Translations under genes and position numbers: made by a program
In this document: positions 12,742-50,462 of the stretch, in pieces
How positions within the stretch are numbered: position 1 is the first letter of the stretch
Layout: each line of letters opens with the position of its first letter
From: an uncultured Candidatus Saccharibacteria bacterium
GTDB taxonomy: Bacteria; Patescibacteriota; Saccharimonadia; Saccharimonadales; Saccharimonadaceae
Length of the DNA stretch: 50,462 nt
Assembly (NCBI GenBank): GCA_964610655.1
Contig: CAZSYG010000001.1
Span: 1 to 50,462 of the forward strand
Direction of reading: 5' to 3'
Notes under the pieces: model-generated
What the model was told of the DNA's origin: nothing
The model's input: only the letters and a program-made list of their open reading frames with translations
Databases searched by the model: none

Positions 12742-12779
12742 AAAAAAACAAGGTCGGAATTGACTTCCGCCTTGTTTTT
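12742..12779. terminator. Bidirectional terminator-like hairpin after dnaK, homologous to the hairpin at 31727-31762
   Basis: AAAAACAAGG-T-CGGAA-TTGAC-TTCCG-CCTTGTTTTT. Confidence 0.75.
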
Positions 12780-12792
12780 AATCCCAAACTAT

Positions 12793-13197
12793 AAAAAAAT
12801 CGGGGGGAGAGGGGAACCGAGCTGGAACCCTCTCTCCGGCCAACAGGACTACTACCGAGCCACGCAGCGAACCGCGCGACCGTTGCCCTTACTGTTGTTG
12901 TTCTGTGGGTTGATGTTCGTAGAGTTGAAGTTCAAGTTGCGAGCGTTCGTAGGCGACGAAGCATACGAGGACCAGAAGTTGCCGTTGTTGCCGCGGTTGT
13001 TGAGGCCGCCATTAGGATAATTGTAGTTGCCGCTTCTTATAACTGGAACGAACTATTCCCACAAGGAATCGCTTTATTAACTTTACTTTCGTAAAAGTAA
13101 AACACCCTGACCTTTTAAAAAGGGTATTCCTCGATTTTTATCATTCTACTCCTAGAGATAGCGCCTCTCCCAGCAACGATTTTCTAAAAGTAGATGC
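12793..13197 (-). ncRNA. Putative stand-alone DGR template RNA, cassette 1
   Basis: Minus-strand TATAAT at 13209-13204; structured leader; AAC-rich template repeat; 3' GC hairpin and U-run; near-identical second copy 19,022 bp away. Confidence 0.8.
12852..13040 (-). repeat. DGR template repeat TR1
   Basis: Reads IRSGNYNYPNGGLNNRGNNGNFWSSYASSPTNARNLNFNSTNINPQNNNSKGNGRAVRCVAR*; 18 of 62 codons are AAY; in-frame stop 4 codons upstream and no start codon. Confidence 0.85.
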
Positions 13198-13226
13198 AAC
13201 TATATTATATAATAATCTCCCGCTCT

Positions 13227-31677: not shown

Positions 31678-31740
31678 ATAATCCAAAATCAAAATCCGCC
31701 CCACTATAATTTTTGACTCATAATCCAAAATCAAAATCCG
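31678..31740 (+). repeat. 21-bp direct repeat ATAATCCAAAATCAAAATCCG
   Basis: Exact copies at 31678-31698 and 31720-31740. Confidence 0.85.
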
Positions 31741-31816
31741 AATTCACTTCGGTTTTGATTTTAATCCTAAAGTTCTTTCGTTGGGACTTTCTTTCTAAGA
31801 AAGTCCCAGACTCTTT

Positions 31817-32229
31817 AAAAATCGGGGGGAGAGGGGAACCGAGCGGGAACCCTCTCTCCGGCCAACAGGACTACTACCGAGCCACGCAGCGAACCGCGAA
31901 CCCGTTGCCCTTGTTGTTGTTGTTCTGTGGGTTGAGGTTTCTGCCGTTGAAGTTCAAGTTGCGAGCGTTCGTTGTGGATGAAGCATACGAGGACCAGAAG
32001 TTGCCGTTGCTGCCGCGATTGTTGAGGCCGCCATTATTGAAGTTGTAGTTGCCGCTTCTTATCTCGCGACAGGGTAGAGCCCAAGGAACATCTTTACTAA
32101 TATTTTTCTCGTAAGATAAATATAGATATGGTCTTTATTTCTTAAAAGAGTGTTCCGCGATTTTTATCATTCTACCTTTAGAGTTAGCGTTCTCTCACCG
32201 GATTAAAACGATTTTCCAAAAGTAGATGC
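31817..32229 (-). ncRNA. Putative stand-alone DGR template RNA, cassette 2
   Basis: Minus-strand TATAAT at 32241-32236; same leader stems, template repeat and 3' hairpin as cassette 1. Confidence 0.8.
31874..32062 (-). repeat. DGR template repeat TR2
   Basis: Reads IRSGNYNFNNGGLNNRGSNGNFWSSYASSTTNARNLNFNGRNLNPQNNNNKGNGFAVRCVAR*; 19 of 62 codons are AAY; no ATG/GTG/TTG between it and the upstream in-frame TAA. Confidence 0.85.
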
Positions 32230-32293
32230 ATATATATTATAACTCTACTCGTCTCCCTTTTTAAACCTCTGTTTTTATGCTATAATATATATT

Positions 32294-35063: not shown

Positions 35064-35966
35064 CTAATTCCTCTTTCCTAGAATAAAGGTGATAGAAGGA
35101 AACAAGCTTGTCTTGTCACCAGTTTGTGGATAGAGAAGTTTAGCCTCATTCCGGAGATAAACAGTTATAAGCAAAATATATAATACGATAATAAAATTAT
35201 AATCCGTAGTTAACTGCAGCAGGACCATTGGTTTCAATATATTCTCATTTGGGAATAGGATGATTACTACACAATTAATGAGAAGGATTACAATGGAATA
35301 GAAATTCCATTTGACATTATTCCATGTTAAACAAAACAATTCTTTTGCTGCTTGCGAATTATTATGTTTTGATCGTTCAATTAGTTTTGCAAGGAAGAAA
35401 CGCTTGTCGCGATAATAACCAGCCTTATTCCATATATAACCTAATACAAAGCCAATTACTGTGATAACCGCGATAAACGAAATCCAGTTGTTAATACTCT
35501 TTGTATATGCAATGGACAAATAAATAGAAATTGCTATAGGTAGGATGGTATAATAACGACGTCCTGCAACATGGATTTTCTTTAAAGCGTCAATCAATTC
35601 GCCCTTATTTGAAATGAGGTCTTGAATTTTGTCGTCTGTAGATTTAGAGTAATCCTGCACCCAAAAAAGAAAAAGTCTAATGAAATGCAGTATAAAGTAT
35701 AATGTAACAAGTATTACCAGAAAACTTGGGAGAAAAATTAATAGTAAAGGATTTTGTATTTTTGTTATATCTTTGATGAAAAATCTAGAAAGCATCGCGA
35801 TTAGTTCCATAGAATAGACTGTGATAGCACACTCAAACAATATATGAAAAATGGCTTCTTTAGCAAAGCCTATATACATGCCGAGATCTCCTTGAGTACG
35901 CATCTGTTCGAGCAAATCATATGTTGTAAGGCGCTTATGCTCGCACTCGTTCTTTATATTATCCAT
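35064..35966 (-). CDS. AT-rich multi-pass membrane protein (cargo)
   Basis: About 6 TMs; GAGG upstream. Confidence 0.7.
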   Translation of the reverse strand: MDNIKNECEHKRLTTYDLLEQMRTQGDLGMYIGFAKEAIFHILFECAITVYSMELIAMLSRFFIKDITKIQNPLLLIFLPSFLVILVTLYFILHFIRLFLFWVQDYSKSTDDKIQDLISNKGELIDALKKIHVAGRRYYTILPIAISIYLSIAYTKSINNWISFIAVITVIGFVLGYIWNKAGYYRDKRFFLAKLIERSKHNNSQAAKELFCLTWNNVKWNFYSIVILLINCVVIILFPNENILKPMVLLQLTTDYNFIIVLYILLITVYLRNEAKLLYPQTGDKTSLFPSITFILGKRN

Positions 35967-36013
35967 TTGAATTGACCTCTCATGTTTATTGCATCTATAA
36001 TCTTGTCAACTTG

Positions 36014-36976
36014 TCACTTTGTCAATCTCCAGTAGGTAATACCACCTTTGGAGAATGAGACCGCTCCGATTTTCTTCATCGCCCGACGTACCGTCCGATC
36101 TCCGATGCCCTCGGCTTCACACTCCACAAATATATCCTCTATCGGCATCGGCCCATTCTCCAGCATATCCCTTAGAATCGACGATGCTTGCTCAAGCTTC
36201 GTCTGGAAGGGACATTCCTCCGTTTCCAATTCATCGCACTCCTCGAAGGATAGAACGCGGTTTTCGTCCAACACCAGCGCCAGCGGCGTATAGTCCGCCT
36301 CATCGAAGTTGCTCTTGATTGCCCGAAGATACCGTCTCGCCCGGTCGTTTTTATCCATCCCGACCAGCAGGATTGAACGAACAGAGGCGGCGATGTCGGC
36401 AGATCCGAGTCCTCGGTGGATATCCTTGCTGGCTTCATTTTTGTTGAGATGACCGACGAGGACGATAGCACAACCAGTATTCTTCGCTACATTGGAAAGC
36501 ATCGTAAATATCGCCCTCATCTTCGAGACGTTACCCATGTGAGTCCCTGATGGCAGAAAGGATTGGAACGGATCAATGATAAAGAGTCGGGCTTTCGTCT
36601 CCGATATGATCGCCGTCACTTCTTCTTCGTTTAGGGTAATATGATGCTCCAGTTCGCCGCTATAAGCGAAGCGATTGATATCCCCGCTATTGCGGAGGAA
36701 CCGAGGGATGGTGGAATCGGCAATCTCGTCCTCATTTGAGGCATAAAATATCGTAATCGGCTCGACTCGCTGTTCTTCCAGCAAATGACCGTTCACCAGA
36801 GCCGGAGGTTGGATTCCCCGCGAAAGCATAGCGGCAACAGCCAAGATTGCCGTCGTCTTCCCCTCGCCACCGTCTCCCTCTATGATAGTCACCTTCCCAT
36901 AGGGGATAAAAGGTTTCCAGAGCCAATCAACCGTTCTAATCTCGGTTTCTCTCGCCCACCGAACTACATGCGCCAT
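36014..36976 (-). CDS. AAA_25/RepA-like RecA-fold ATPase with C-terminal wHTH
   Basis: VDWLWKPFIPYGKVTIIEGDGGEGKT, IIDP, GHLNK, GSADI. Confidence 0.85.
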   Translation of the reverse strand: MAHVVRWARETEIRTVDWLWKPFIPYGKVTIIEGDGGEGKTTAILAVAAMLSRGIQPPALVNGHLLEEQRVEPITIFYASNEDEIADSTIPRFLRNSGDINRFAYSGELEHHITLNEEEVTAIISETKARLFIIDPFQSFLPSGTHMGNVSKMRAIFTMLSNVAKNTGCAIVLVGHLNKNEASKDIHRGLGSADIAASVRSILLVGMDKNDRARRYLRAIKSNFDEADYTPLALVLDENRVLSFEECDELETEECPFQTKLEQASSILRDMLENGPMPIEDIFVECEAEGIGDRTVRRAMKKIGAVSFSKGGITYWRLTK

Positions 36977-37011
36977 ATTGTTTCCCCCAAGAGAATATCA
37001 GCTTGTACTGC

Positions 37012-37070
37012 TGATATTATATCAGAAATCTGGCCCAAAAGCAAAAATAGCCGGGGTTCTGTCGCCCGGC
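37012..37070 (-). promoter_or_regulatory. Terminator-plus-promoter module, copy A
   Basis: Minus strand GCCGGG...CCCGGC hairpin and T-run, then TTGCTT-17 nt-TATAAT. Confidence 0.7.
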
Positions 37071-37108
37071 ATACTTGTAAGTGCTAACCGTCTATTGAAT
37101 TAATACTA

Positions 37109-40100
37109 TTACTGATTGCCCTTGTGGTCTTTTTTTCTACTGTTTCGATCTGAAGCTAATCTCGCCGCTTCAATATTCCGGGTTCTTGCGTGATTTTTAC
37201 TTTTCTTCTCCGTATGATAGCTTGCGCCGTTCATTCTCAGAATTTCCGACAACTTCGACTCTTGGATAATCGCACCAGAGAAATCGCAATCCAATAAATT
37301 GATATACGGAATAGAAATAAACCCAGCGACTGACTTCCTTCGAACGGAAGAAGCGTTTGTCACGTCCCATATTAATATGGTGCCGTCACTTGAAGCGCTG
37401 GCAGCATAGCATCTTCCGTTGATCGCTGGGCTCGCGCTTACATTCCACACAAAGCTCGAATGTTCAGTTTTTACCTCCAGCTGTTTTTTCTGTTGCAAAT
37501 CCCATATACCAATTAGCGCATCCGTTGTGCCGCTGACGAGAAACTGGCCGTTTTGCGATAATGCTGCGCCATAAATAAAATCGGTATGGCGGTTTGGAAA
37601 GTATGCCGGAACTCCTGTAATATTCTGCGTTTCTTTGTCAAATCTATGAGATATTATTCCTCCATCATTAGACGTTGTGATAATCTCATTGCCGTCTTCA
37701 GTCCATAATACTGTGCGGATAGGTTCGCTATGGCCACTTTCAGCTATTTGAATTGAATCGAGCGCCAGCAAATCCCAAAGCACAATTGTGCGGTCATTTC
37801 CGCCACTGACCAGAAAGTATTCGTCTGGAGACACGGCAAGGCTGTAGATTCCTTTGCTGTGACGGGTGGGCAACGCGATCTGAGTATCTGCCTTTCTCTC
37901 CCAAAGAACTAACGTACAATCATCAGAGCCACTCACTATCCTGCCATCCTTCAAACAGACGACCGCGTTCACTGAATCGGTATGCGCATTATGAGACGCT
38001 ATGCATGCTTCGCTTTCATCAGGGCAAGTCGTATCCCAAAGCCGAACAGTCCTATCGTCCGATCCGGATATCAGATGAGTATTATCGTTCATCCACGCGA
38101 CACATTTGACGCTATCCATGTGACCTTCGATTATATTGACGCATCTTTTTGAAGCGGTATCCCATATGCGTATACTCCCATCGTCATATCCAGCGGCTAA
38201 TCTGGAGCCGTCCTTTGACCAGCTGGAGCATCTGGCAGTATTAGGGCATTTGTCGCCAAGCAGAGCGCTTGTAATCTGTTCTCTATTTTCTTCAACCACA
38301 TCAATTGTTATGCGGCAGACTGTCCCGTCCCGGAAACCGCAAATGAGTTCTGTCGCGTCACGATTCCAGCATGCGTTGACAACACGCTGTTTTGAGTAAT
38401 CCAGCAGTCCGTGTGTCCCAATAGCCGCCATTTGGTATCCGTTGTCTACAATAAAACCAGTCTGCATCTCTACCACATTATTGTAGAACAAAGCGATTTT
38501 GTCGCCCTGGGTATCCGAATGCCCAATCGCAACTGCCGAGATATTATTACGACATAAGGGTGGAGCTACTAAAGGCGCGGCTTCCAACTTCATGTCTCCC
38601 GCCATTTCTTTCAGATGGTTCCAGTCAAGCAACCGCAATTCATCTCGTGTAGACACGGCTATAATATAATTATTTATCCAATTCAAAGATGTAATCTCGT
38701 TACTGTCAGCTGAAATCGTACACATGGGCTTTTTTGCTCTCGCGTCCCATATGCATACCAACCCGCTTTTATCCACAGTTGCCAATATACCGAATGATCC
38801 TGGATTCCAGTCGGCAAAAATGACACGATTTTGATGGATTTTTGGAAGCTCTATAGAATTGGCTTTTTGATAAAACAGCTTGACGATCCCTTCCTCGTCG
38901 CCACAGGCAATAGCCCTCCCATCATGGGACCAAGCCATACATCTTATCCAGTGAGCGCAACTGCCTTTTATTTCGGGCTTCCAGCGAGAGGTCTTACTGT
39001 TATACTGCCAAACGCAAAGTTTCTTGTCGTCTCCGGCGCTGGCGATTATATTGTTTTTCGTAGGATGCCACTCCGCACATCTGATATAATGCTGATGGAA
39101 ACGCTTGAGTACAATATTCTTTTCAGAGAGGCGATCCCAAATCCGAATTGAACAGTCGTATGACGCGCTGAGATAACGATTCCCGTTTGGACTCCATGAG
39201 ATTGCCGATACATTCATTCTATGGCCTTTGCCAAAGAAAGTGTTCGACGATAGTTTGCATCCAATAAAGTGGCCTTTGCTATTCCGTAGATCGAGATTGA
39301 TCAATGGTACGTTTGATAAATCCAGCCCACTGAAATTGATCGAATCGGCATTTCTGCCATAAGCCATTCTATACATTTCCAGCATTTTCAGGATAAACTT
39401 CGTATCATGGTCTGTTGCTTTTCGGTGGAGCTCCCACAATTTCTCCCAAACAGTTTCTTTATCTGAAAATCGCGGTTCAGTTTCGAGAAGATTGGCCACA
39501 AAGCCCATGATGTACTGATCAAAGGGTAAAGTCCATTCCACAGGAATCGCTTCATCGGTACTGGTTTCAGCAAGGTTGTAAAGATAAATAGCGGCAAGAC
39601 AGTCCCTGAAATGCTGGTGGACCAGTTGTACTTGACCATCATTGTCATAAAAAAGGCAGAGCGTTTTTACCAGGAGATTATACATATTGTCCCGCAAAAT
39701 AGCATCGGAACCGTTTTGATATTTCATTTCTTGAATATGTAAAGGCAATCGATTATTCTTCGAGTGCGCTTCATATAAATCACAGGCACTGTTGACATAG
39801 GCAATAAAGTCCCTATGGCTTATTATGAATTGATTGTTCTTCGCCATTTCATAGCAAATATACGGAGCGACAAACTCCGCCGCGACACAATAGTCGTAGT
39901 TTCCCGCCTCCGTTTGGTCCCGCAAATAGCTCTCACTTTGGATATAATTCCAGATTATTGAACCGGGGTTTTTGTTTTCCCTCCAGTCGCCGGTAGTATG
40001 CTGATATTTTTGCTTGAAGGCTTCAAATTTTGCAAAGAGTATAAGCATGAGTGGCGTGTCGATAACGTTCCACAAATTGTCCTGCGGTGGAGGAAGCATA

Positions 40101-41314
40101 ATGCTGTTTTGCTTCAAAAATGACTCTATGGTTTTCCGATCCAGTGAATCGGCGTGTACTTGCAGTGGAGCGTGGAATTCACTTTGAAGCTCTGAAACCG
40201 TGTTGTTGCGCGAGGCGAAAAGTATTTGGATGTTTCTCATGCCGCTCCAGTCTGTTTTAACTTCGTGCATGACCACGTTTTTTAGGGCATTGTCCAATTC
40301 GTTCACGCCGTCCAGGATAAGCAAAAGGGAGGGCTTTCCGAAGGAGGGCTGTTCGCACATAGCAAAGAGATCCTTCATCAGCGTGGTATCGTGATGCAAG
40401 GTTACGGCTTCGATATAATGCTGAATCGGCGTTGTGGACGTATGCAACCGTCTTAATGGAATATAAATAATCGAGGTGTCAATCGCAAGCGACAACAGTG
40501 ATATTGTCTTTCCAATACCCCCTATGCCAAATAGTGATATATATTTCACGGGCTCTCCATTGATATTCCAGCTTCTCTCTATAATATCCGGCAGGGGCAT
40601 GGAAATATCCTCTATATCACGGTTGCCGCCCATTACATGATAATTTTCCAGAATACTGCCTTTGATGAGAATCTCATCGCTGACGCCGATGCTATCGTAG
40701 CTTGGGTTCTTATCCTTTTCTTCGAGGTATCCAGCCTTAAGCGCTTCACGAAGACAATCATATTGGCTGGACTGATTTAGAACGGCCTTTTTTTCTTCGT
40801 TTTGCGCATGAGATGGGCTCTGTAATTGTCTGATAGCATTTATCATGCACACCTGTTCAAAAGACAGATATGAGTTAGATTTTTCCTCAACCATTTCCTG
40901 AAACGACAGAAAAAACTGCTGAATCAATGACTGATCGGTTCCATTCAGTTTTGGTTTGTCTGCTTGCGACAATATTTGGTTAACCCTATCAATAGCTTTT
41001 TCCTTGACTTCGCAGATAAATTCATTCCGCGGTTTGCTATTCTGATTTGGATTAAGCACGTATTGAATAATTTCTTCGCACGGCTTGTGGTTTTCGAGAT
41101 ATTGGTAAAAAGCATTCTCAGACAGTATGCTTCCGTCATTCTGTTTTGCTGCGTCAGTTAAGAATTGCTCAATGGATTTCATCAGCATGTTTTTGAAATC
41201 ATTTTTCTTCTTTTCGTCCATGAAGTTGGTCTGCTTATTCAGCATAGGCACAGCTGCAAGGCTGGCAAAAATACTATTAAGTATACTCTTCCATTCAAAG
41301 ATAATCATGATCAT
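37109..41314 (-). CDS. STAND/NACHT-like NTPase with C-terminal WD40 repeats (NLR-like)
   Basis: Walker A GIGGIGKT, Walker B LLILDGVNE, TPLML, HQHFRDCLAA, pentapeptide-like FSGLDLSN, many GH...WD repeats; the start may be a few codons downstream. Confidence 0.88.
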   Translation of the reverse strand: MIMIIFEWKSILNSIFASLAAVPMLNKQTNFMDEKKKNDFKNMLMKSIEQFLTDAAKQNDGSILSENAFYQYLENHKPCEEIIQYVLNPNQNSKPRNEFICEVKEKAIDRVNQILSQADKPKLNGTDQSLIQQFFLSFQEMVEEKSNSYLSFEQVCMINAIRQLQSPSHAQNEEKKAVLNQSSQYDCLREALKAGYLEEKDKNPSYDSIGVSDEILIKGSILENYHVMGGNRDIEDISMPLPDIIERSWNINGEPVKYISLFGIGGIGKTISLLSLAIDTSIIYIPLRRLHTSTTPIQHYIEAVTLHHDTTLMKDLFAMCEQPSFGKPSLLLILDGVNELDNALKNVVMHEVKTDWSGMRNIQILFASRNNTVSELQSEFHAPLQVHADSLDRKTIESFLKQNSIMLPPPQDNLWNVIDTPLMLILFAKFEAFKQKYQHTTGDWRENKNPGSIIWNYIQSESYLRDQTEAGNYDYCVAAEFVAPYICYEMAKNNQFIISHRDFIAYVNSACDLYEAHSKNNRLPLHIQEMKYQNGSDAILRDNMYNLLVKTLCLFYDNDGQVQLVHQHFRDCLAAIYLYNLAETSTDEAIPVEWTLPFDQYIMGFVANLLETEPRFSDKETVWEKLWELHRKATDHDTKFILKMLEMYRMAYGRNADSINFSGLDLSNVPLINLDLRNSKGHFIGCKLSSNTFFGKGHRMNVSAISWSPNGNRYLSASYDCSIRIWDRLSEKNIVLKRFHQHYIRCAEWHPTKNNIIASAGDDKKLCVWQYNSKTSRWKPEIKGSCAHWIRCMAWSHDGRAIACGDEEGIVKLFYQKANSIELPKIHQNRVIFADWNPGSFGILATVDKSGLVCIWDARAKKPMCTISADSNEITSLNWINNYIIAVSTRDELRLLDWNHLKEMAGDMKLEAAPLVAPPLCRNNISAVAIGHSDTQGDKIALFYNNVVEMQTGFIVDNGYQMAAIGTHGLLDYSKQRVVNACWNRDATELICGFRDGTVCRITIDVVEENREQITSALLGDKCPNTARCSSWSKDGSRLAAGYDDGSIRIWDTASKRCVNIIEGHMDSVKCVAWMNDNTHLISGSDDRTVRLWDTTCPDESEACIASHNAHTDSVNAVVCLKDGRIVSGSDDCTLVLWERKADTQIALPTRHSKGIYSLAVSPDEYFLVSGGNDRTIVLWDLLALDSIQIAESGHSEPIRTVLWTEDGNEIITTSNDGGIISHRFDKETQNITGVPAYFPNRHTDFIYGAALSQNGQFLVSGTTDALIGIWDLQQKKQLEVKTEHSSFVWNVSASPAINGRCYAASASSDGTILIWDVTNASSVRRKSVAGFISIPYINLLDCDFSGAIIQESKLSEILRMNGASYHTEKKSKNHARTRNIEAARLASDRNSRKKDHKGNQ

Positions 41315-41408
41315 TCTCCCATGTTTTTCAGCATATTGCTTTAATACTACATAAAGTATAAGCTTGTTAGCTCAATTAGTCAACGATTTCAATATCGCAT
41401 TATATTGG

Positions 41409-41468
41409 TGATATTATACCAGATAATCAGCCCAAAAGCAAAAAAGCCGGGTAATTATTACGCCCAGC
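41409..41468 (-). promoter_or_regulatory. Terminator-plus-promoter module, copy B
   Basis: Homologous to copy A, directly downstream of the recombinase stop codon. Confidence 0.7.
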
Positions 41469-41480
41469 AAAATGATATGA

Positions 41481-43076
41481 TTATTTGTCGATTATCTCAG
41501 TAATCTCTGTTCCGTCCGTAAAGCAGAATACCAGCTTGCCCTTTTCGCCTTTCTCAACCAGGATTCGGTCGATAGCGAGGGTGAACACATCATCACGGAA
41601 TTCAGTCATCTCCCCCTCGCACATTGCCAGCACTCTCATGAACCGACGCAACTTCTCTTTCTTCGCCGTCTGTGCGAGGATTGCCTTTTTCGCGGCTTCC
41701 AGCAGCTGCTTCTTTTCATCGACGACGTCCTTCTGCGCGTTATACTTCATCAGGTACACATTCTGATCCTGCTTATATTGTGTGTTCTCTTTGATGATGC
41801 CCTGAAGCGAGTCCAGCGCGTTTTGCAGAGCATCCTCTGCTTGAGCGCGCTGACGTTCCAATTTGGTCGTATTTGATAGTATCTTCAATTCCGATTCGTA
41901 AATGGCTTCATATGCGGTCTTGTTTTTCAAGACTTTGTTGAGGGCAGTGAGGAATGCCTTTTTGATGGCGTATTCCCTCAAGAGTGGCGTTTCGCAAACC
42001 TTATCGCCGTTGTAACGCTGATTGCAATACCAGACGTCGGTTCGGAACTTATCCTTGCCGTGGAACACCTTGTGGCCGAAGTAACCACCGCAGTCACCGC
42101 AGACCAGCTTTGCCGTTAGCACGTTTTTTCCGCTGAGCTTTGACCCATGTCGGCTCCGCCTCTCCAGTTCAACCTGAACGAGATCGAATTGATCAGGCGG
42201 TATGATGGCCGGATGCGAGTTGCTGATATAATACTGTCTGGCATCGCCCTCGTTTTTCTTCACCTTCTTGGTCAAGTAGTCCACTACGATGGTCTTCTGT
42301 AGCAGAGCGTCACCTTTGTATTTCTCATTCGACAGGATGCTTTTGACCGTAGAGACGGCCCATTTGTGCTTTCCGGCTGGAGTGGGAATACCCTCTCCAG
42401 TTAAAGTATCTGCTATATATCGGATGGTCTTCCCGTCGAGGAACATCTCGTATATCCTGCGGACGATTACTGCTTCTTTCTCGTCAATTTCCAGCTTCCC
42501 ATCGGCGCCTTTCCTGTAGCCCAAAAAGTGCTTGTACCCCACAGACACCTTCCCGTTCTGCATACTGCGCTGGCGTCCCCAACGTACGTTCTCGCTGATT
42601 GACCGGCTTTCCTCCTGGGCCAGCGAGCTCATGATTGTCAGCATGACCTCACATTTGGGGTCGAGGGTATTGATATGCTCTTTCTCGAATCTCACCTCAA
42701 TGCCTTTAGCTTTAAGCTCGCGTATCGCCTGAAGCGTATCGACCGTATTGCGAGCGAATCGGGAAATAGACTTGGTTAGGATCAGGTCGATATCTCCATT
42801 CAATGCCGCTTCCATCATACGGTTGAATCCATCGCGCTTTTTGGTATTCGTTCCCGATATACCCTCGTCGGCAAAGACGCCCGCGGATTCCCAATCGGGG
42901 TTAGCCCCTATAAATTGAGTATAGTATTTAACCTGTGCCTCGTAGCTGTTCTGCTGCTCGTCCTGTTCAGTTGAGACGCGGGCGTAAGCAGCAACCCGCA
43001 GCTTCTTAGGCTGGAAGGTATTACTGTCCACAATGAGCCTTTGGATGACTGGCTCAATTACTGTTACTTTAGCCAT
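41481..43076 (-). CDS. Large serine recombinase
   Basis: AAYARVST, DEGISGT, TKSISRFARN, recombinase domain, Zn ribbon CGDCG, coiled coil. Confidence 0.95.
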   Translation of the reverse strand: MAKVTVIEPVIQRLIVDSNTFQPKKLRVAAYARVSTEQDEQQNSYEAQVKYYTQFIGANPDWESAGVFADEGISGTNTKKRDGFNRMMEAALNGDIDLILTKSISRFARNTVDTLQAIRELKAKGIEVRFEKEHINTLDPKCEVMLTIMSSLAQEESRSISENVRWGRQRSMQNGKVSVGYKHFLGYRKGADGKLEIDEKEAVIVRRIYEMFLDGKTIRYIADTLTGEGIPTPAGKHKWAVSTVKSILSNEKYKGDALLQKTIVVDYLTKKVKKNEGDARQYYISNSHPAIIPPDQFDLVQVELERRSRHGSKLSGKNVLTAKLVCGDCGGYFGHKVFHGKDKFRTDVWYCNQRYNGDKVCETPLLREYAIKKAFLTALNKVLKNKTAYEAIYESELKILSNTTKLERQRAQAEDALQNALDSLQGIIKENTQYKQDQNVYLMKYNAQKDVVDEKKQLLEAAKKAILAQTAKKEKLRRFMRVLAMCEGEMTEFRDDVFTLAIDRILVEKGEKGKLVFCFTDGTEITEIIDK

Positions 43077-43079
43077 TGA

Positions 43080-44408
43080 TTATTCCTCCTCTCCTTTTCG
43101 CTTTCTATGTTGTTCAAGACTTTTTTGCCTTGCTCGTTCTCTCATCTCCGGTGTCCAGCTTTTGCTGCGCGATGGGTTTTCCCACTTAACCGTCTCAATA
43201 CAACCATCCTTCAAATAATAGCGAAGCAAATTGTGCTCTGGTACTTCAATGCGCTTGATTTGTTTAGCAATCAATTCGTCGGTCAGTTCCTGCTCTTCTT
43301 GTAGATCCAGCACTGCACGGGTTTTCTCGATCAGGATATCTTCGCGTATTCGCTGAGATGAGCAATACCCTTTGCCTAATTCATCAAAGGTGCAACACAT
43401 CCAAACGGGGAATCGTCGTTTTTGCGAGGTTGGAGCATTTTTCCGAACATATGTTGAACCGCAGTCACCGCAGTATATCAAACGACTGAATAAGTGGCCT
43501 TCTGTTTTGTGTTTTGATTCGTACAGTTTTTCCCGTCGAACAATTTCCTCTTGGACCTGACGAAATAGCTCAGGAGAAACAATCGGCTCATGGCTCTCTT
43601 CGACATAGTACTGTCGTCGCTCGCCGCGATTTCGTCTTTGCTTTTTTGTTCGGAAGTCTTCGACATATTTCTTCTGAAGCAGCATATTACCAGCATATTT
43701 CTCATTCCTGAGCAGATCATAGATATGAATTGGTTTCCATGCCTTTTTATCGAATAGCAATCCATCATCATTGAGTTTTCTAGCAATAGCCTGAGTTCCC
43801 ATTCCTGCCAGATAATCGTTGAATATTCGACGTACTACCACAGCCTCTTCTTCCACAATTTGCAGCTGACTGTTGACCATTCGATAGCCGAAAAGATTAT
43901 GCCACGTCGGAATTCCTTCCTCAAATTGCTTTTGTATCTGCCAGCGCTTGTTCTCAGAGGCTGACCGAGCTTCCTCCTCGGCAAACATAGCGATTAGCGA
44001 CAGCATCAGGTCTCCATCTGCGCTGAACGAGCTCATGTTCTCTTTCTCGAACAGTACCTCAATCCCAAGCTCCTTCAGCTCCCTGACCGTCTTCAGCAGC
44101 GTGACAGTGTTGCGGGCAAAGCGAGTAATCGACTTCGTAATCACGACATCGAACTTCCCTGCGCGAGCGTCCGTCAACATCCGCTGGAATTCTGGACGGT
44201 TCTCCTTGGTTCCCGACAAACCGTAATCAGCATAAACCCCGGCGAATAGCCAGCCGGGGTGATTGCCGATATAGTCGTTATAGTAGCTAACCTGATTGGA
44301 AAGGGAATCCAGCGCCGCTTGCTTCTCTACAGAAACGCGGGCATATGCCGCCACCCGTTTGAACGCGGGGGCGACTATTATGGTGGGTTTGATTTCTCTT
44401 ATTTGCAT
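43080..44408 (-). CDS. Large serine recombinase
   Basis: AAYARVS, DYGLSGT, TKSITRFARN, CGDCG. Confidence 0.95.
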   Translation of the reverse strand: MQIREIKPTIIVAPAFKRVAAYARVSVEKQAALDSLSNQVSYYNDYIGNHPGWLFAGVYADYGLSGTKENRPEFQRMLTDARAGKFDVVITKSITRFARNTVTLLKTVRELKELGIEVLFEKENMSSFSADGDLMLSLIAMFAEEEARSASENKRWQIQKQFEEGIPTWHNLFGYRMVNSQLQIVEEEAVVVRRIFNDYLAGMGTQAIARKLNDDGLLFDKKAWKPIHIYDLLRNEKYAGNMLLQKKYVEDFRTKKQRRNRGERRQYYVEESHEPIVSPELFRQVQEEIVRREKLYESKHKTEGHLFSRLIYCGDCGSTYVRKNAPTSQKRRFPVWMCCTFDELGKGYCSSQRIREDILIEKTRAVLDLQEEQELTDELIAKQIKRIEVPEHNLLRYYLKDGCIETVKWENPSRSKSWTPEMRERARQKSLEQHRKRKGEEE

Positions 44409-44430
44409 AAGCGTTACCTCCTACCCTCCA

Positions 44431-44805
44431 TCAATCCCTCTTTTGGGGCAGGAAGTCCAGCGTTTTCTGCGGTAAATTTTCGCGTCGCTGGGCAGGAATA
44501 TGGCCCATAATCCGCCTTTCCCGGTTCCACCAGGAATAGCGGCATTTATCGGAACAAAATGTCTTGCCTACGCGATTCCAAGGATTGTCCATAGTCCTTC
44601 CGCAGAATTTGCAGCGAGGCAGCTGCTCAATCTCCACTGCCTTATTGATGTTCTTTTGAGGTGTGTTCTCTCTGGGCATGAACTCATACTTCCGACATAC
44701 GGATTTGATTGTGTTCGGTGATATTCCCAGCGTCTTTCCGATGCTGGCATAGGTATAATTGTCGGCGCGTAGTTGGCCGATGGTCTCAATCTGCATTTCG
44801 TTCAT
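44431..44805 (-). CDS. Small HTH plus Cys-motif protein next to the recombinases
   Basis: IGKTLGISPNTIKSVCR, CKFCG...FCSDKCRYSWW; AAAGGAGG before ATG 44805. Confidence 0.75.
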   Translation of the reverse strand: MNEMQIETIGQLRADNYTYASIGKTLGISPNTIKSVCRKYEFMPRENTPQKNINKAVEIEQLPRCKFCGRTMDNPWNRVGKTFCSDKCRYSWWNRERRIMGHIPAQRRENLPQKTLDFLPQKRD

Positions 44806-44960
44806 CTTGCGCCTCCTTTCATTCTTATTGGCATTCCCCCTCATAGCAAATTGACTTAATAAGGTATATTGTTGGTACCCCTCATTGGGGCATATGGATA
44901 ACCGGCCCGCGCTGTGGCGGACCGGAAATGTGTTGAGTGGTATAGCTGATTCTGCAGCTA

Positions 44961-45191
44961 CTACAGTTTGCGCACTTCGTCTTCACCGGGAATCATCCCC
45001 AAGCCGGAACCATTGTCCCAGCTGATCTGGATCGTTCCCGCGTCATCCACGAACTCCACTGTGCCCTTCGTGCCGGGCATCAGCTTCGTATAAGGGTCGC
45101 TGGTATGCACCAACTCTACTCGGGTCCCTTTGGGGTACTGAGCGCGGAGCATGTTGATCCTCGCTCTCGACGGGAAACCATTATTCCTCAT
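44961..45191 (-). CDS. DUF4314-like protein
   Basis: YPKGTRVEL, GTKGTVEFVDDAG, WDNGSGL. Confidence 0.8.
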   Translation of the reverse strand: MRNNGFPSRARINMLRAQYPKGTRVELVHTSDPYTKLMPGTKGTVEFVDDAGTIQISWDNGSGLGMIPGEDEVRKL

Positions 45192-46362
45192 CGTCAGATT
45201 CCTCCTCTTCATCTCCAACGTCCGTTTCTTCCTCTTCCGGCTCCGGGTCAGACTTGACCGGCTCTTCCGGCGTGCTCACAGCCGGAGCCACCACGGTCGG
45301 CATCTCAAGGTCGAAGCTGCTGGCATCCGGCGCGTTGCCGTATCGCCACGCTCCGTTGCCCTCCAGATTCCTGATCAGGAACCGCCGAGCGAACTTGAAC
45401 TCTTCGCCCTTGAACCCCAGATTGTTGAGGAACAGGCGCATCGTGAACTTGTCGTTGTCGGTCGGTTTTTCCGTCGCGCTGATCCGCGAAGAGGTCAACG
45501 CCCTCATCGCAATGGCGTAAATGAACTTCGCATAGGCATCCACTTCGCCATCCACGCCCTGAAGCGTGAACCACGGGAACTGGATCTGATCGTCCGTTAC
45601 GACAATCGGCAACTCCTGCGCGTCGAACACTTTCTTCAAAAGCGTCTGCTTACTGGAAACCAGCGCTCTCAGGCGTTCAATCGCGGCGGGGGAGAACTTG
45701 TCTTTCGGCAGGGAAAGGGTCAGCCGGGAATCGTCGGAATCCTCAGCCTCATCTATGGCTTCGGCCTCCTCGGTCTCCTCGGCGCTTTCCGCTGCCTCGC
45801 CCTCGACGGTTTTCTCGCCCTCGTCGGGCGCGGATTCGCCGCTTTCCGGGGCTTTCTCGGCCTCCTCGGTATCGTCCTCGCTGGCCGGGGAATCCCCGCC
45901 CAAAGGGGCGATTTCCGGGGCGTCGTGCGCTTCCGGTTCCGGCTCCTCCGAGCCTTCCGCTTCAGGTTCCTCATCGGCATCCTCAGCTTCATCCTCGATC
46001 CCGTCGTCCTCGCGCTTTTCATCGTCATCAGAACTCTCGGCCTCATCAGCCTCCGGCTCTTCCTCTTCCGGCTTAACATCCGCTTCCTCGGAATCGGTTT
46101 CCTCATCGGGAAACAGCTCCGACAGCGATTCCTCCGGCTTGTACTCGTACTCAGCGTACAGAGCGTCAACCAGCCGGAAAACATCATCCGTCGTGGCTTC
46201 GTCCGGAGTGATCAGATTGCCGTTCCTGTCGACAATGTAACCGCCAATGTTATAGGCGTAGCTGGGCGGCCCCTGATAAACAGAGGCGACGGCCAGCAGG
46301 TGGGCGATAGCTTTGACAAGTTCCTTGCGGGCGGGTCCAGTGACGTTATAGGTGATTTTCAT
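45181..46362 (-). CDS. Prophage/ICE-associated protein with a long acidic insertion
   Basis: RKELVKAI...YQGPPSYAY N-domain; FPWF, NDKFTMRLFL..LGF...RNLEGN C-domain. Confidence 0.75.
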   Translation of the reverse strand: MKITYNVTGPARKELVKAIAHLLAVASVYQGPPSYAYNIGGYIVDRNGNLITPDEATTDDVFRLVDALYAEYEYKPEESLSELFPDEETDSEEADVKPEEEEPEADEAESSDDDEKREDDGIEDEAEDADEEPEAEGSEEPEPEAHDAPEIAPLGGDSPASEDDTEEAEKAPESGESAPDEGEKTVEGEAAESAEETEEAEAIDEAEDSDDSRLTLSLPKDKFSPAAIERLRALVSSKQTLLKKVFDAQELPIVVTDDQIQFPWFTLQGVDGEVDAYAKFIYAIAMRALTSSRISATEKPTDNDKFTMRLFLNNLGFKGEEFKFARRFLIRNLEGNGAWRYGNAPDASSFDLEMPTVVAPAVSTPEEPVKSDPEPEEEETDVGDEEEESDDEE

Positions 46363-46415
46363 AGGGAAACTCTCCTTTCTTATATTGGCATCCAGCTCAT
46401 GTTGGAATTGACCAG

Positions 46416-47015
46416 TCAGGTATGAACCTCGAATCGGTAGTAGTGATGGCCGTTGCGCTCTCCCTCATGGAGAATCAAACCGCCGTTCTTCGGGCATCCG
46501 CTTTTCGTGACAAAATAAAAGCCGTAACCCATGTCGTTATACAAGGTTACAACTTCATTCGGCCACTTGAAGCAATCCCGCATCGCCTTTATTAAGGCTC
46601 GGCGTTTGTGCCTGTTCTCCAGCATCTTGGAGATCGTTGCGTTGGCATCGGTCGTGATGATCTGTGTGTTCGGCCTCTCGGTCTGGTACAGCAGCTTGAC
46701 TCGCCCGATCTTCGGGAGAATCCGCTTCAGGTACTTCTGGGGAATCTTGATGTATTGCTTGAACCCCCAAACCTGTCTGTCACTCGACTCGGAAAGCCAG
46801 GTGATGCGAACCCACAGATCGTATCCCACATGCCACAGCTCGGCAAAACAGCCGCAGTCCATGTCAAGGGTTACTTTCTGTTCCGGCTCTAACATAGCGT
46901 TGATTATCACAACGCGGGCAATCAGAAATCGCCCTCTTGCGCCGTGCTTCCGGTCATAGGTTCTGATGCCGATATAATCGCCATCATTACTCAGTTCAAC
47001 CTTAACGCTATCCAT
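46416..47015 (-). CDS. Hypothetical protein
   Basis: 199-aa ORF with TGATG coupling to the upstream gene. Confidence 0.7.
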   Translation of the reverse strand: MDSVKVELSNDGDYIGIRTYDRKHGARGRFLIARVVIINAMLEPEQKVTLDMDCGCFAELWHVGYDLWVRITWLSESSDRQVWGFKQYIKIPQKYLKRILPKIGRVKLLYQTERPNTQIITTDANATISKMLENRHKRRALIKAMRDCFKWPNEVVTLYNDMGYGFYFVTKSGCPKNGGLILHEGERNGHHYYRFEVHT

Positions 47016-47152
47016 CAGATCTCATCTCCTTCCTCGATTTCCATCGTGCAGAACGGGAACACGTCCCAATTGCAGTTGTCGCCGAGCTTGTCCAGAATTT
47101 CCTGCTGCTTATTCTCAGTCAGGTCTTTCCAGTAGAACTCAATGGTAATCAT
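47015..47152 (-). CDS. 45-aa hypothetical protein not in the ORF track
   Basis: GGAGG SD; MITIEFYWKDLTENKQQEILDKLGDNCNWDVFPFCTMEIEEGDEI*; TGATG overlap with the next gene. Confidence 0.7.
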   Translation of the reverse strand: MITIEFYWKDLTENKQQEILDKLGDNCNWDVFPFCTMEIEEGDEI

Positions 47153-47157
47153 CTGAA

Positions 47158-47427
47158 TCACCTCCAGAAGCGGTGCTTGATCCGCAGGAAGAAGAGGCGC
47201 AGCTGGCTGTAATCCTGACAGATTAAGTGGTAGATGGTATCGTAGAAATCCTCTGCCTCATAGGGCAGCGGCTCAACACCGTGCAACCGATCTATCAGAA
47301 TCTGGTCGGCCACGACCTCTTCGGCATCCTTGCGGCACCAGTGGGTGACATCGCGCTCATCCATCGCGTCATAGACTTTCAGGATGATGCGCATAATCGC
47401 TTGCGCGTCAGAAAGACAGGCTTGCAT
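47158..47427 (-). CDS. Hypothetical protein
   Basis: AGGAGGAGG SD before ATG 47427. Confidence 0.65.
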   Translation of the reverse strand: MQACLSDAQAIMRIILKVYDAMDERDVTHWCRKDAEEVVADQILIDRLHGVEPLPYEAEDFYDTIYHLICQDYSQLRLFFLRIKHRFWR

Positions 47428-47440
47428 ATAGACCTCCTCC

Positions 47441-47782
47441 TTACATGATTGTGTCGGCGGGCAGATTCTCAAAATATTCAACCAGAGTATCGAGAATCAA
47501 CTTGTGCTCTTCCGTTTCCGGCTCAATGTCCCAGCCACGATCATAGTTAATGATGTATCGGGAAACATCGGTCAGGCTTTCCAGCTTGTGACGGACAGTG
47601 AGTTTGCTGATTCTCCCTTCGTTGATTCCGTACTTGGAACCAATCTGGAAAACCAGCGCGAAGAACTCGTATCCGTCAATGGTGCCTCTTAGCCATCTGC
47701 CGTCCATCTGGACGGTCATGGTCTCAAGCAGCTGCATCTGCCTCTCGGTATGCTTCTCAGCGTCAAATGCCGTCGAGTTCAT
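47441..47782 (-). CDS. Hypothetical mobile-element protein
   Basis: GGAGG SD; SKYGINEGRISKL...NYDRGWD. Confidence 0.7.
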   Translation of the reverse strand: MNSTAFDAEKHTERQMQLLETMTVQMDGRWLRGTIDGYEFFALVFQIGSKYGINEGRISKLTVRHKLESLTDVSRYIINYDRGWDIEPETEEHKLILDTLVEYFENLPADTIM

Positions 47783-48668
47783 AGATCTCAGCCTCCGTTT
47801 CCCATGCGTCGGTCAAACCGACAATGATCGGACCGAACCTGACGTACCCATAGGTATCATCATAGTCACGGGCATCGATATCCTCCGCGAACTCATTCAG
47901 CGGCCTGTGGATCAGCGTCCGGGAATCGTAGATCGTAGAAAACCCACGTTCCATCGCTTCCACACAGACATCGTAAAGTGGCAGCGGATGGAGATGATAC
48001 GGGTCGGCATACTTCTGCTTCGCAGCCGGAGGAGCCTCGGTCACTTTGGTCAGTTTCGCGGTGAAGACATACCTCTGATCCTTGTCCTCACAGGAGATAT
48101 ACTCCTCCGAGAAAACGCAGACCAGCGGCTCATCATCCAGCATATAGTTGTTGATAAACTCCTTCATGCCAGCTTCAACCTGCTCCCGCGTTTTTACACA
48201 GTAAAGGGACGGGACGGTGCCTTTATAGACCTCGGCCACCACCCACAGCGTCGGTGCCTTGAGCAGCGTGGATCTGTCAGGCTCAATGGGTATGGTCGGT
48301 TCGGACGCTTTGTCCTCTTCGACCTCCCAGCCCTCCATGTCTCCACACTTGTCATAGCCATCGGCGACGCTTTCCAGCCACTTTTCCATCTCTTCTAGAC
48401 TGTCGCCAGTCCAGCGCGGTCCGCCATAAGGCGCAACCGCCGAGCCGTCTCCATATTCGGTCAGCTCCAGCGACTCGTCGGTCGCCACGAACTTCCCCTT
48501 GTAGATGTAAAGCTGGATCGTATCGTCAAAGTAGTTGATGACCTTCCAAGCCCTATCGCTGAAGGTTTCCGGGAAACGAATCTCAACCGCAGTCGCCGCG
48601 CCGACCGGATCGTTCCGATCGGTCGGCGGGTTGCTCTGATTCTCATAGGGACTAATGATGTGTTTCAA
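47763..48668 (-). CDS. Hypothetical protein
   Basis: TTG start after AAGGAGG; the 5' extension in the ORF track overlaps the next gene. Confidence 0.65.
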   Translation of the reverse strand: MKHIISPYENQSNPPTDRNDPVGAATAVEIRFPETFSDRAWKVINYFDDTIQLYIYKGKFVATDESLELTEYGDGSAVAPYGGPRWTGDSLEEMEKWLESVADGYDKCGDMEGWEVEEDKASEPTIPIEPDRSTLLKAPTLWVVAEVYKGTVPSLYCVKTREQVEAGMKEFINNYMLDDEPLVCVFSEEYISCEDKDQRYVFTAKLTKVTEAPPAAKQKYADPYHLHPLPLYDVCVEAMERGFSTIYDSRTLIHRPLNEFAEDIDARDYDDTYGYVRFGPIIVGLTDAWETEAEIYELDGI

Positions 48669-48693
48669 GGTAAAAGCCCTCCTTCTATATGTA

Positions 48694-49122
48694 TTATTGG
48701 AACAAGAAATCATCATCGTCGTCATCGTCACAGGAATCGTCAACATCCTCCCGTTCATCGGCATAACTCCACATGTCCTCGGTTGGCTGCTCTCGCAGTT
48801 CAGGATGATCGTCGATGTAATCGGCCACCATCTCAGCCAACTTGTCCAGCAGTGTCTCATAGGAATCCTTTCGGTATACTCCCCACAGCGCCCAGACCAT
48901 CGAGGTAATCGCCTCATCAGCCTTGGCGGCGAGGAAGCGTCCGGCGGGATTACAGGTCTCTTTGCCATAGCCGATTCCCAACTGATCGCCGTCGTTATAG
49001 AAACGATAGCCGATCCGGGACATGGCCCTGACAATTTCCCCAGCGAGGCTTTCTGCCTTGCCCTCCAAGGGGACCAGCGCTTCGAACTGTTTGCTCAAAC
49101 GATCATTAACCGCTTGGTTCAT
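48694..49122 (-). CDS. Hypothetical protein
   Basis: AAGGAGG SD; GEIVRAMSRIGYRFYNDGD. Confidence 0.7.
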   Translation of the reverse strand: MNQAVNDRLSKQFEALVPLEGKAESLAGEIVRAMSRIGYRFYNDGDQLGIGYGKETCNPAGRFLAAKADEAITSMVWALWGVYRKDSYETLLDKLAEMVADYIDDHPELREQPTEDMWSYADEREDVDDSCDDDDDDDFLFQ

Positions 49123-49126
49123 GGAA

Positions 49127-49447
49127 TCATCCCTCCTTAGTCTTGTCGCTTTCCTTTTGGTATTCTTCCTTCCAGAACTGCGAGCTGCTTTCCAGTGCGG
49201 AAAGCTGCCGCATCAACCAGTCAGCAAGGCCGCGGGGAATCGCAATGAGTTCGTCCTGTCGTCTGCGGCTGCTGGCGATGCGCCCGATCCTGGGCGCATG
49301 CCATACCGCCTGTGTGATCTCGAAGATCTCATCGTGATTGAGGTTGCGTTCACCCGGTGGGAAATCGTACCGAGGCTTCTTGTCCTCGGTTATGTAGCGC
49401 TGATGGAGCTGCAAAAGCTCCGCGCCAGCATCAATCGGTTTCTTCAC
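49127..49447 (-). CDS. Hypothetical protein
   Basis: GTG start 9 nt after GAGGAGG; start uncertain. Confidence 0.5.
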   Translation of the reverse strand: MKKPIDAGAELLQLHQRYITEDKKPRYDFPPGERNLNHDEIFEITQAVWHAPRIGRIASSRRRQDELIAIPRGLADWLMRQLSALESSSQFWKEEYQKESDKTKEG

Positions 49448-49655
49448 GGGTCCCATCCTCCTCGTCCTCGATGTTCGCCTCTCCCGTGATAATGAAGTGG
49501 GCATAAGCGCCGTGATTCTTCTTCTCAGCGAGAAAGTTGACCAGCTCGAACAGGCTCAGTCTGTACGCAACGGTCTGCACGCCGTTAATATCGAACATAT
49601 TGACAGCGCCGGTGTCGCGGACTTTGAGAATCTGCTCTCGAACCTTACTCGTCAT
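49431..49655 (-). CDS. DUF5049-like protein
   Basis: VREQILKVRDTGAVNMFD...YAHFIITG. Confidence 0.75.
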   Translation of the reverse strand: MTSKVREQILKVRDTGAVNMFDINGVQTVAYRLSLFELVNFLAEKKNHGAYAHFIITGEANIEDEEDGTREETD

Positions 49656-49899
49656 CGTGGGTTTCCTCCTTTCCAAATTCGGCATCAAGCCAGTCGAGAT
49701 ACTGTTCATCGTTCAGATCGCCGGAATCCATCGTGATCAGGAATGCTCCTGATACGCCATAGGAATCCAGCTTCTCTTCCACCTTCCGCTGGAATTCGAG
49801 TGCCTGCTCTCTGGTTGAGAATAAACTCACCCAAGGCGTGCATTCGGGATCACAGCGGCTGATACAGATAGTCGTAATGCGCGGCGGTTTGTCGGTCAT
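49645..49899 (-). CDS. Hypothetical protein
   Basis: AGGAGG SD and ATGA overlap. Confidence 0.6.
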   Translation of the reverse strand: MTDKPPRITTICISRCDPECTPWVSLFSTREQALEFQRKVEEKLDSYGVSGAFLITMDSGDLNDEQYLDWLDAEFGKEETHDDE

Positions 49900-50267
49900 A
49901 TGGAAACGACCTCCTGTTCGCCCTTGGCATTGATGGCGACGATCCCTTTCGGGGAACGCAGAAACACCTGCGGGTAGTAAAACAGCTTCTCGTACTTATC
50001 GGCCAAATCGTCGGGGAGGTCGGTAAAGTCCTCCGCGCCAAGTCCGCATACAAAAAACGTCCCCGCGATGATGTCTACGTTCGGAATGTAACGGTTCAGG
50101 TCATAGCCCTTGAGCTTACCCTCCTCGTCACACACCAGCGCCACCGGATCGTCATACGGGTATATCGCTTGGATATACCCGCCGACAGTCTGCTGCATCG
50201 CGTCCAATGCGTGCGGAATCTCCGCTCGCCTCGGACGGCGATTGGGTTCAACGATCAGAATCTTCAT
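49896..50267 (-). CDS. DUF3846-like protein
   Basis: MKILIVEP, MQQTVGGYIQ, CDEEGKL, IAGTFFVCG. Confidence 0.8.
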   Translation of the reverse strand: MKILIVEPNRRPRRAEIPHALDAMQQTVGGYIQAIYPYDDPVALVCDEEGKLKGYDLNRYIPNVDIIAGTFFVCGLGAEDFTDLPDDLADKYEKLFYYPQVFLRSPKGIVAINAKGEQEVVSI

Positions 50268-50462
50268 GGGGAATGTCTCCTTTCTCACAGTCAAAGTGGC
50301 TGGGAATCACGCGCTCGTCGTCAGCTTCATTGTGGATATAAACAATGCTCATACCGGCAATGCGCTGTACGGCAATCGTCCAGATCTCTCCGGTCAGCGC
50401 GTGCAGGGCGGTAAGCATACCGTCCAGACGCGCTCGGTAGATCGTCCTGACAGGGTCCTTGG

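Follow-up and report, generated by a model that had tools for sequence, protein, structure and literature searches.

Two template repeat (TR) cassettes of a diversity-generating retroelement (DGR), a type of hypermutation system, stand alone in an uncultured Candidatus Saccharibacteria bacterium, each behind a predicted -10 box, and their leaders probably hold a primer strand and a stop duplex on the 5' side of TR, an arrangement that corresponds to a circularly permuted BPP-1 RNA. DGR priming is known to us from one system, BPP-1. The reading proposed here is carried by adenine-specific TR/VR pairs, by covariation in the leader helices P2 and P4, by a long-range helix joining the leader to the 3' end of its own cassette, and by a better match of the leader strand to VR in most relatives.

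The window, meaning the whole stretch of 50,462 nt that was analyzed, belongs to a genome of 721 kb in 58 contigs. The two cassettes, A and B, are RT-less, stand-alone DGR template repeats in a tiny gut bacterium, and no RT was found within the 50,462-nt window. A 259-nt repeat common to the two is 90% identical, and the leader, which has diverged further, begins in each case at its own -10 box, 3' of ruvB in cassette A and divergent from lepA in cassette B. The leader belongs to no curated RNA family, as Rfam 15 at gathering threshold returned only tRNAs in the window and in 16 related loci. The relatives of the RTs of this genome carry the labels Candidatus Saccharibacteria or "Ca. Nanosyncoccus". 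The end of the window (35064-50462) differs from the rest of the contig and may be an integrated element or a mis-join; ORFs labeled by eye in this block include two serine-recombinase-like ORFs (41481-44408), a 1401-aa WD40-repeat ORF (37109-41314), and small mobile-element-like ORFs.

Over 188 nt, all mismatches between TR-A and the VR on contig C28 (13/13) and between TR-B and the VR on C16 (18/18) fall at TR adenines. The VR targets of both cassettes lie on other contigs; those on C16 and C28 are fragments of genes, and the gene upstream of C44 is absent from the assembly. Run X2 contained one contig with a second VR-B-like allele that has extra changes at TR-B adenine positions, an observation made on contigs only. 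Fragments of target-gene 3' ends occur at C16:7145-7480, C28:5-345, C3:23623-23660, C11:1-55, and the ends of C13 and C27; they begin and end at varied points, in genome G367 as here, and are possibly integration by-products or recombination scars. Two further VR-like gene ends, at C15:2746-2946 and C15:4015-4242, have no close match to the three assembled TRs.

The genome contains two RVT_1 genes, on C44 and C43, both free of internal stops. The DGR on C43 is complete, including a TR of its own, and differs at its 3' end. On C44 there are an accessory gene and an RT but no TR, and at its start this contig has the 3' hairpin end found in cassettes A and B; this common end makes C44 the likely RT partner of the two. 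The structure predicted for the C44 accessory ORF (L001:198-1082) has a pLDDT of 91.8, and its ~110 C-terminal residues superpose on Avd (TM 0.83-0.86, with a weak E of 0.011-0.014), so that in the model the protein ends in an Avd fold. It has no Pfam match. The ~175-residue N-terminal part fused to this fold contains a small alpha/beta domain and has no clear match in the PDB. Among the 80 RT loci, 72 related ORFs show conservation of the accessory gene. The gene order is target, accessory, RT with a convergent TR in 39/48, or the TR is remote. Two RTs of the clade (L171 and L182) come from records labeled Deltaproteobacteria and Clostridiales, through mis-binning or transfer, and L182 also has a leader match.

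A first-pass annotation had proposed that each TR follows a dedicated promoter and a structured leader whose fold is kept while its sequence drifts. The elements it listed are present in both copies at the positions in Table 1: a TATAAT box with G13197 or G32229 as the seventh base after it (a 6-nt gap), an outer 11-bp stem in which the minus strand pairs 11/11 with G-U pairs at differing positions, a second stem that reads GGAAT/ATTCC in one copy and GGAAC/GTTCC in the other, and a hairpin with a UACG loop. With 986 occurrences of TATAAT in this genome, the two boxes taken by themselves are weak evidence. The genome-wide spacing from TATAAT to ATG has its peak at 6-7 nt, in agreement with the predicted starts; 133/986 have an ATG 6-7 nt downstream, suggesting many leaderless mRNAs. 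A -10 box lies 45-150 nt 5' of P2 in 59/68 leaders (at 78-115 nt in 57/59), compared with 14/68 on the opposite strand. The promoter proposed for each TR is thereby supported as a predicted one.

These leaders, which occur across the genus, have a common layout: after the -10 box come the long stem-loop P1, a short strand of 8-9 nt, and then P2, P3, and P4, followed by an A-rich linker, the other strand of P2, and TR. P2, P3, and the YANG hairpin P4 form a three-way junction. Two copies alone are weak evidence for such a fold, and their folding z-scores are modest (-1.41 for A and -1.35 for B); it is the wider alignment that settles the structure. When 28 leader cores are aligned by sequence only, pairing in P2 and P4 reaches 89.5%, with two-sided changes at all 14 of 14 pairs, which bears out a structured RNA domain kept under sequence drift. 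The covariation score of P2 and P4 is 0.879, compared with 0.296 for shuffled and at most 0.21 for slid alignments; the 28 cores were cut by the P2 call, so that P2 is partly selected, and P4 is free of such selection. Among 74 P4 loops, UACG is the most frequent (28), followed by CAAG (10), CACG (9), and UAUG (7). For P1, RNAalifold gave no consensus on eight MAFFT-aligned regions; by eye, the outer stem in the four closest copies pairs at 11/11, 11/11, 9/11, and 9/11, with one U-A/U-G/C-G column.

A covariance model of the leader, R1, was built from the 28-core alignment and contains no 3' sequence. In this genome its matches number exactly four, namely A, B, the one at the complete DGR on C43, and a TR-less copy on C2. 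Across 88 sources, training loci among them, there are 84 matches. The 80 RT loci hold 39, spread over 37/80, so the motif does occur beside RT genes, a point that the first-pass annotation had put up for checking. Matches per genome reach 21 in G318, 15 in G029, and 8 in G307, and G318 and G307 have one RT each of this clade. The TR pattern itself was matched in 47/369 genomes of the genus. With strict filters, R1 gave zero matches in 150 other genomes of the order; any claim of wider reach therefore rests on the joint and mirrored tests and the folds of distant CPR loci described below, not on R1.

Table 1. Features of cassettes A and B, in window coordinates
Feature	Position	Strand	Remarks
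Copy A -10 box	13204..13209	-	Predicted +1 at 13197, backed by TATAAT-to-ATG spacing control
Copy A P1 stem-loop	13141..13197	-	Outer stem formed by 13194-13184 and 13155-13145
Copy A predicted primer strand	13132..13139	-	Helix with 12802-12795; priming predicted from G13132
Copy A P2 5' strand, predicted stop duplex	13126..13131	-	Covariation
Copy A P3 hairpin	13111..13123	-	Fold prediction alone
Copy A P4 hairpin, UACG loop	13082..13101	-	Fold and covariation
Copy A P2 3' strand, avd-strand analogue	13064..13069	-	~21 nt 5' of TR; covariation
TR-A	12853..13040	-	VR match on contig C28: 13 adenine and 0 other mismatches, 188 nt
Cassette A 3' hairpin, common to TRs and VR ends	12806..12837	-	TR/VR comparison
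Copy A template strand of primer helix, IMH* position	12795..12802	-	TR/VR-end identity ends here
Core of bidirectional terminator-like hairpin, cassette A/dnaK interval	12755..12769	.	
Copy B -10 box	32236..32241	-	Predicted +1 at 32229
Copy B P1 stem-loop	32167..32229	-	Outer stem formed by 32226-32216 and 32181-32171
Copy B predicted primer strand	32158..32166	-	9-bp helix with 31824-31816; priming predicted from G32158
Copy B P2 5' strand	32151..32157	-	Covariation
Copy B P3 hairpin	32132..32149	-	Inferred from alignment with other copies
Copy B P4 hairpin, UACG loop	32101..32122	-	Covariation
Copy B P2 3' strand	32084..32090	-	~23 nt 5' of TR; covariation
TR-B	31875..32062	-	VR match on contig C16: 18 adenine and 0 other mismatches, 188 nt
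Cassette B 3' hairpin, common to TRs and VR ends	31828..31859	-	TR/VR comparison
Copy B template strand of primer helix, IMH* position	31816..31824	-	
Core of terminator-like hairpin 3' of cassette B	31738..31752	.	

A long-range helix links the strand abutting the 5' side of P2 to the 3' end of its own cassette. With P2 placed by R1, swapping in foreign 3' ends leaves the own end within the top 5% for 50/70 cassettes, including 28/40 outside the training loci and 23/43 outside the largest subfamily; counted by distinct 8-mer, the result is 17/28. The cassettes are related to each other, one same 8-mer being present in 30/70, and this kinship inflates the counts. In 48/50, the gap between the strand and P2 is zero. 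The minimum free energy structures of A and B include the helix, and equally good pairing was obtained with 3/67 foreign 3' ends for copy A and 2/67 for copy B. Compensatory change within one genome or array was seen between the TR copies and the TR-less copy of G367 and in L078. The strand 3' of P2, tried as a primer duplex with bases past the TR stop codon, reached the top 5% in 7/70 cassettes (median rank, 0.60) and was rejected as a general feature. An unconstrained two-helix search was noisy, and automatic P2 calling, which found 53/74 with several mis-calls and placed 29/53 in the top 5%, was replaced by the covariance model.

The same strand fits VR DNA. It pairs with VR over 7-10 contiguous bases in 13/19 TR/VR rows, and in 10 of those 13 the pairing with TR spans 1-3; over the 19 rows, pairing is better with VR in 11, equal in 2, and better with TR in 6. 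A model-free search for a perfect complement of at least 8 nt to the VR boundary found one upstream in 25/56 TR/VR pairs (one duplicate row included), compared with 3 in the control window and 0/56 downstream of TR, and these upstream complements extend 10-13 nt into DNA that is absent from TR. A generic detector called 15/49 upstream, 1 downstream, and 3-4 in controls. A chance 9-mer occurs upstream in BPP-1 too, and single loci therefore prove little.

The long-range helix also marks a boundary of the cassette. TR/VR identity stops at it, and the segment from the TR end motif to the helix is adenine-poor (64/671, compared with 441/1214 immediately 3'). On the other side, TR mostly starts 17-27 nt 3' of P2 where P2 is correctly called. 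In tandem arrays, 9 of the 26 cassettes listed have the next -10 box only 8-17 nt past their template strand, which leaves no space for a 140-nt Spacer. An alternative would retain the BPP-1 order in compact form, with the long-range helix as the analogue of the cPRT-stop duplex (like avd:Sp) and the 3' hairpin common with VR as the priming element. In A and B this hairpin does directly precede the paired strand, giving the order primer and then stop strand, and stop duplexes of such a kind are predicted widely in the available text of Handa 2024 (10.1101/2023.10.23.563531). We consider this alternative unlikely: the largest subfamily is without the 3' hairpin and has its paired strand 12-13 nt after the TR end motif, the start of TR follows P2 and lies ~90-130 nt from the long-range helix, and a stop duplex would have no reason to fit VR DNA better than TR.

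The weak pairing of many TRs with the strand, by 1-3 contiguous bases, would suit a role for the strand as a homing guide or clamp on the target IMH, with the cDNA primed otherwise, by the RNA 3' end, target DNA, or protein. The BPP-1 primer is just as weak on its own TR, however, and the strand always adjoins P2; in this genome it fits TR and not VR, and copies that have no TR retain it, all of which makes a guide without priming improbable. A leader that serves only to stabilize or process the transcript, taking no direct part in the RT complex, would agree with the modest folding z-scores and with leader-protein binding being a prediction. It would leave unexplained why the leader covaries with the IMH and IMH* ends, why P2 keeps a fixed distance to TR, and why distant CPR DGRs have the same topology, and is very improbable. 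A primer strand and stop duplex 5' of TR, the preferred reading, is accordingly set beside the BPP-1 RNA below.

The BPP-1 RNA, as far as the available text of Handa 2024 describes it, comprises 20 nt of avd, TR, and a 140-nt Spacer, in the order TR, Avd stem-loop, primer strand, stop strand, short stem-loop, A-rich ring, and RT-binding stem, with the second stop strand just 5' of TR; BPP-1-like downstream elements are reported there in 207/278 DGRs, a set that includes CPR. The BPP-1 primer pairs with IMH better than with IMH* according to the part of Naorem 2017 (PMC5703328) that deals with it; recomputed from the BPP-1 record, it forms 9 Watson-Crick pairs and 1 G-U pair with VR and 2 contiguous pairs with TR, and its Avd stem is capped by a UACG loop, like P4 here. 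The order in the cassettes is instead P1, primer, P2 5' strand, P3, linker, P4, P2 3' strand, TR, and template strand. By analogy, this is the same circle as in BPP-1, cut at the TR/Spacer boundary. The first-pass annotation had supposed that the leader may replace the avd-derived 5' segment, which is right for the P2 3' strand, the equivalent of the 20-nt avd segment, and too narrow otherwise: because the leader also has a strand like the BPP-1 primer, it likely replaces most of the 3' Spacer too.

Both systems have adenine-specific TR/VR pairs, a DGR-type RT, an Avd-fold protein, a UACG-capped hairpin, a primer strand that at the family level fits IMH better than IMH*, and an adjoining stop-like duplex whose other strand lies just 5' of TR. 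Unlike in BPP-1, the predicted primer and first stop strand here are 5' of TR and not 3', the RNA has its own predicted promoter, no avd-derived part, and little or no 3' spacer, the templates are detached from the RT and number up to 21 per genome, and the accessory protein has ~175 extra N-terminal residues.

In the proposed mechanism, an RNA of ~400 nt starting at 13197 or 32229 would be bound in trans by the C44 RT and its Avd-fold accessory protein. The cDNA would be primed by the last base of the leader strand (G13132 or G32158), stacked on P2; a priming base beside P2 would parallel Sp56 beside the cPRT-stop duplex in BPP-1. The RT would then copy the 3' hairpin, followed by TR with adenine errors, and would halt near P2, whose 3' strand ends ~20 nt 5' of TR. 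The RNA primer with its attached cDNA could then anneal to VR. The order of primer and then stop is well supported. As for which of P1 and P4 is bound by the RT and which by the accessory protein, analogy with BPP-1 points both ways: the order favors P1 as the Avd stem, and the UACG loop favors P4.

The last step of this scheme does not fit the VR ends of this genome. Primer pairing with IMH is better than with IMH* in the family overall, but not at these ends: those on C16, C27, and C44 form just 2 bp with the primer strand, and the C28 VR ends before the helix. Pairing of 2 bp means that primer-IMH pairing cannot explain homing in this genome, and homing here would rely on the ~60-80 nt of common 3' sequence, or else some VR ends would no longer be used. 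The G367 VR end forms 4 bp with the primer strand.

The TR-less copy on C2 (C2:22395-22632, L033) is a leader fused to the 3' hairpin, with TR absent. Genome G367, in which no RT was found at 90% completeness, has the same three cassettes in the same gene neighborhoods, and its TR-less copy, on its contig C1 (L308), retains P2, P4, and the primer helix despite sequence changes. On comparison of the two sequences, retention of this copy points to selection; roles of the TR-less RNA as a decoy or in 3'-end repair are guesses. The loop base of the C2 copy hairpin is that of the C16 VR and not that of TR-A or TR-B. A further locus of the TR-less or TR-shortened type (L054:572-660) keeps the leader, the 3' hairpin, and the primer helix. 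In the template arrays L084 (G318:C14), L026/L077 (G029:C10), L075 (G307:C63), and L078, cassettes follow one another at intervals of ~400-650 nt, and every one has a -10 box and a leader of its own; G318 has 21 cassettes and one RT of this clade.

Signs of the same layout were sought in 40 further CPR RT loci and 80 viral loci. Raw match length was strong just in one group of near-identical phages and gave no excess over the control in distant CPR loci (5 versus 5 of 21). Tested jointly, a primer helix with an adjoining stop helix ranked ≤1 of 40 in 7/18 distant CPR, 5/16 nearer CPR, and 4/28 viral loci, and under this strict joint test most loci were without signal. In the mirrored joint test, BPP-1 was called downstream (rank 0 of 30), and three CPR sets were called upstream in 14/48, 7/16, and 8/18, compared with 3, 1, and 3 downstream; viral loci were mixed, with 7/28 upstream and 3 downstream. 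Several distant CPR leaders have a 12-13 bp helix directly 3' of the primer in a P1-primer-P2-P3-linker-P4 fold. This helix, together with a recurring A-rich linker from P3 to P4, was noted in L279, L281, L288, L289, L291, L292, L296, L298, and L302. TR is ahead of the RT in 18/18 distant CPR loci, and in at least 6 of these, by eye, an Avd-like ORF lies on the opposite strand in the TR-RT interval, which fits the B3 architecture of Wu 2018. Several phage leaders have a UACG hairpin 5' of the primer. Phage DGRs with only ~40-110 nt from TR to RT (L190, L191, L197, L201-L256, L204, L240, and L255) have the IMH complement 50-75 nt upstream of TR, often preceded by a UACG hairpin. In a quick unrooted RT tree of 52 selected rows, those with the upstream signal fall in three separate groups and BPP-1 sits on a long branch; an unrooted tree with such a branch says nothing on the ancestral form.

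Parts of this arrangement have precedents. In the available text of Wu 2018 (PMC5758913), architecture B3 makes up 90% of the study's CPR set, and TR and RT may be on different strands, so that, as here, TR is transcribed apart from avd or RT; that text covers gene order and remote targets, and RNA structure and remote templates are the features here. A TR RNA with its own start site, as predicted here, is reported in Trichodesmium (PMC4143802), and the trans-acting DGRs of Thiohalocapsa (PMC10907252) have remote targets with RT and/or TR in trans, as here. A difference from the cassettes here is the use of one template, adjoining its RT, for 12 targets, and the accessible parts of the two reports describe no 5' primer. 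No 5'-primed or permuted DGR RNA was found in the literature to the extent that the texts were available; the CPR predictions of Handa et al. may bear on novelty. The 5' primer and stop layout is thus likely what is new here, a TR RNA with its own start and trans action being already known.

It is quite possible, as a tentative extension, that a circularly permuted RNA in which the entire Spacer precedes the template on its 5' side is used by a large share of DGRs, among them those of the dominant CPR architecture and some from gut phages. Templates would then be self-contained genes, with one RT reading a library of up to ~21, each addressed by an RNA guide of 8-13 nt, and conserved template-less RNAs would serve as decoys or in 3'-element repair. 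The 5'-primer form, if true, would show that the DGR RNA is modular and would explain CPR templates that are antisense to or far from the RT. The dozens of natural primer/IMH pairs offer comparative support for a proposed, unproven homing step in which the primer RNA anneals to IMH, and for targeted mutagenesis tools, stand-alone cassettes that each carry a promoter suggest a simple design with several templates.
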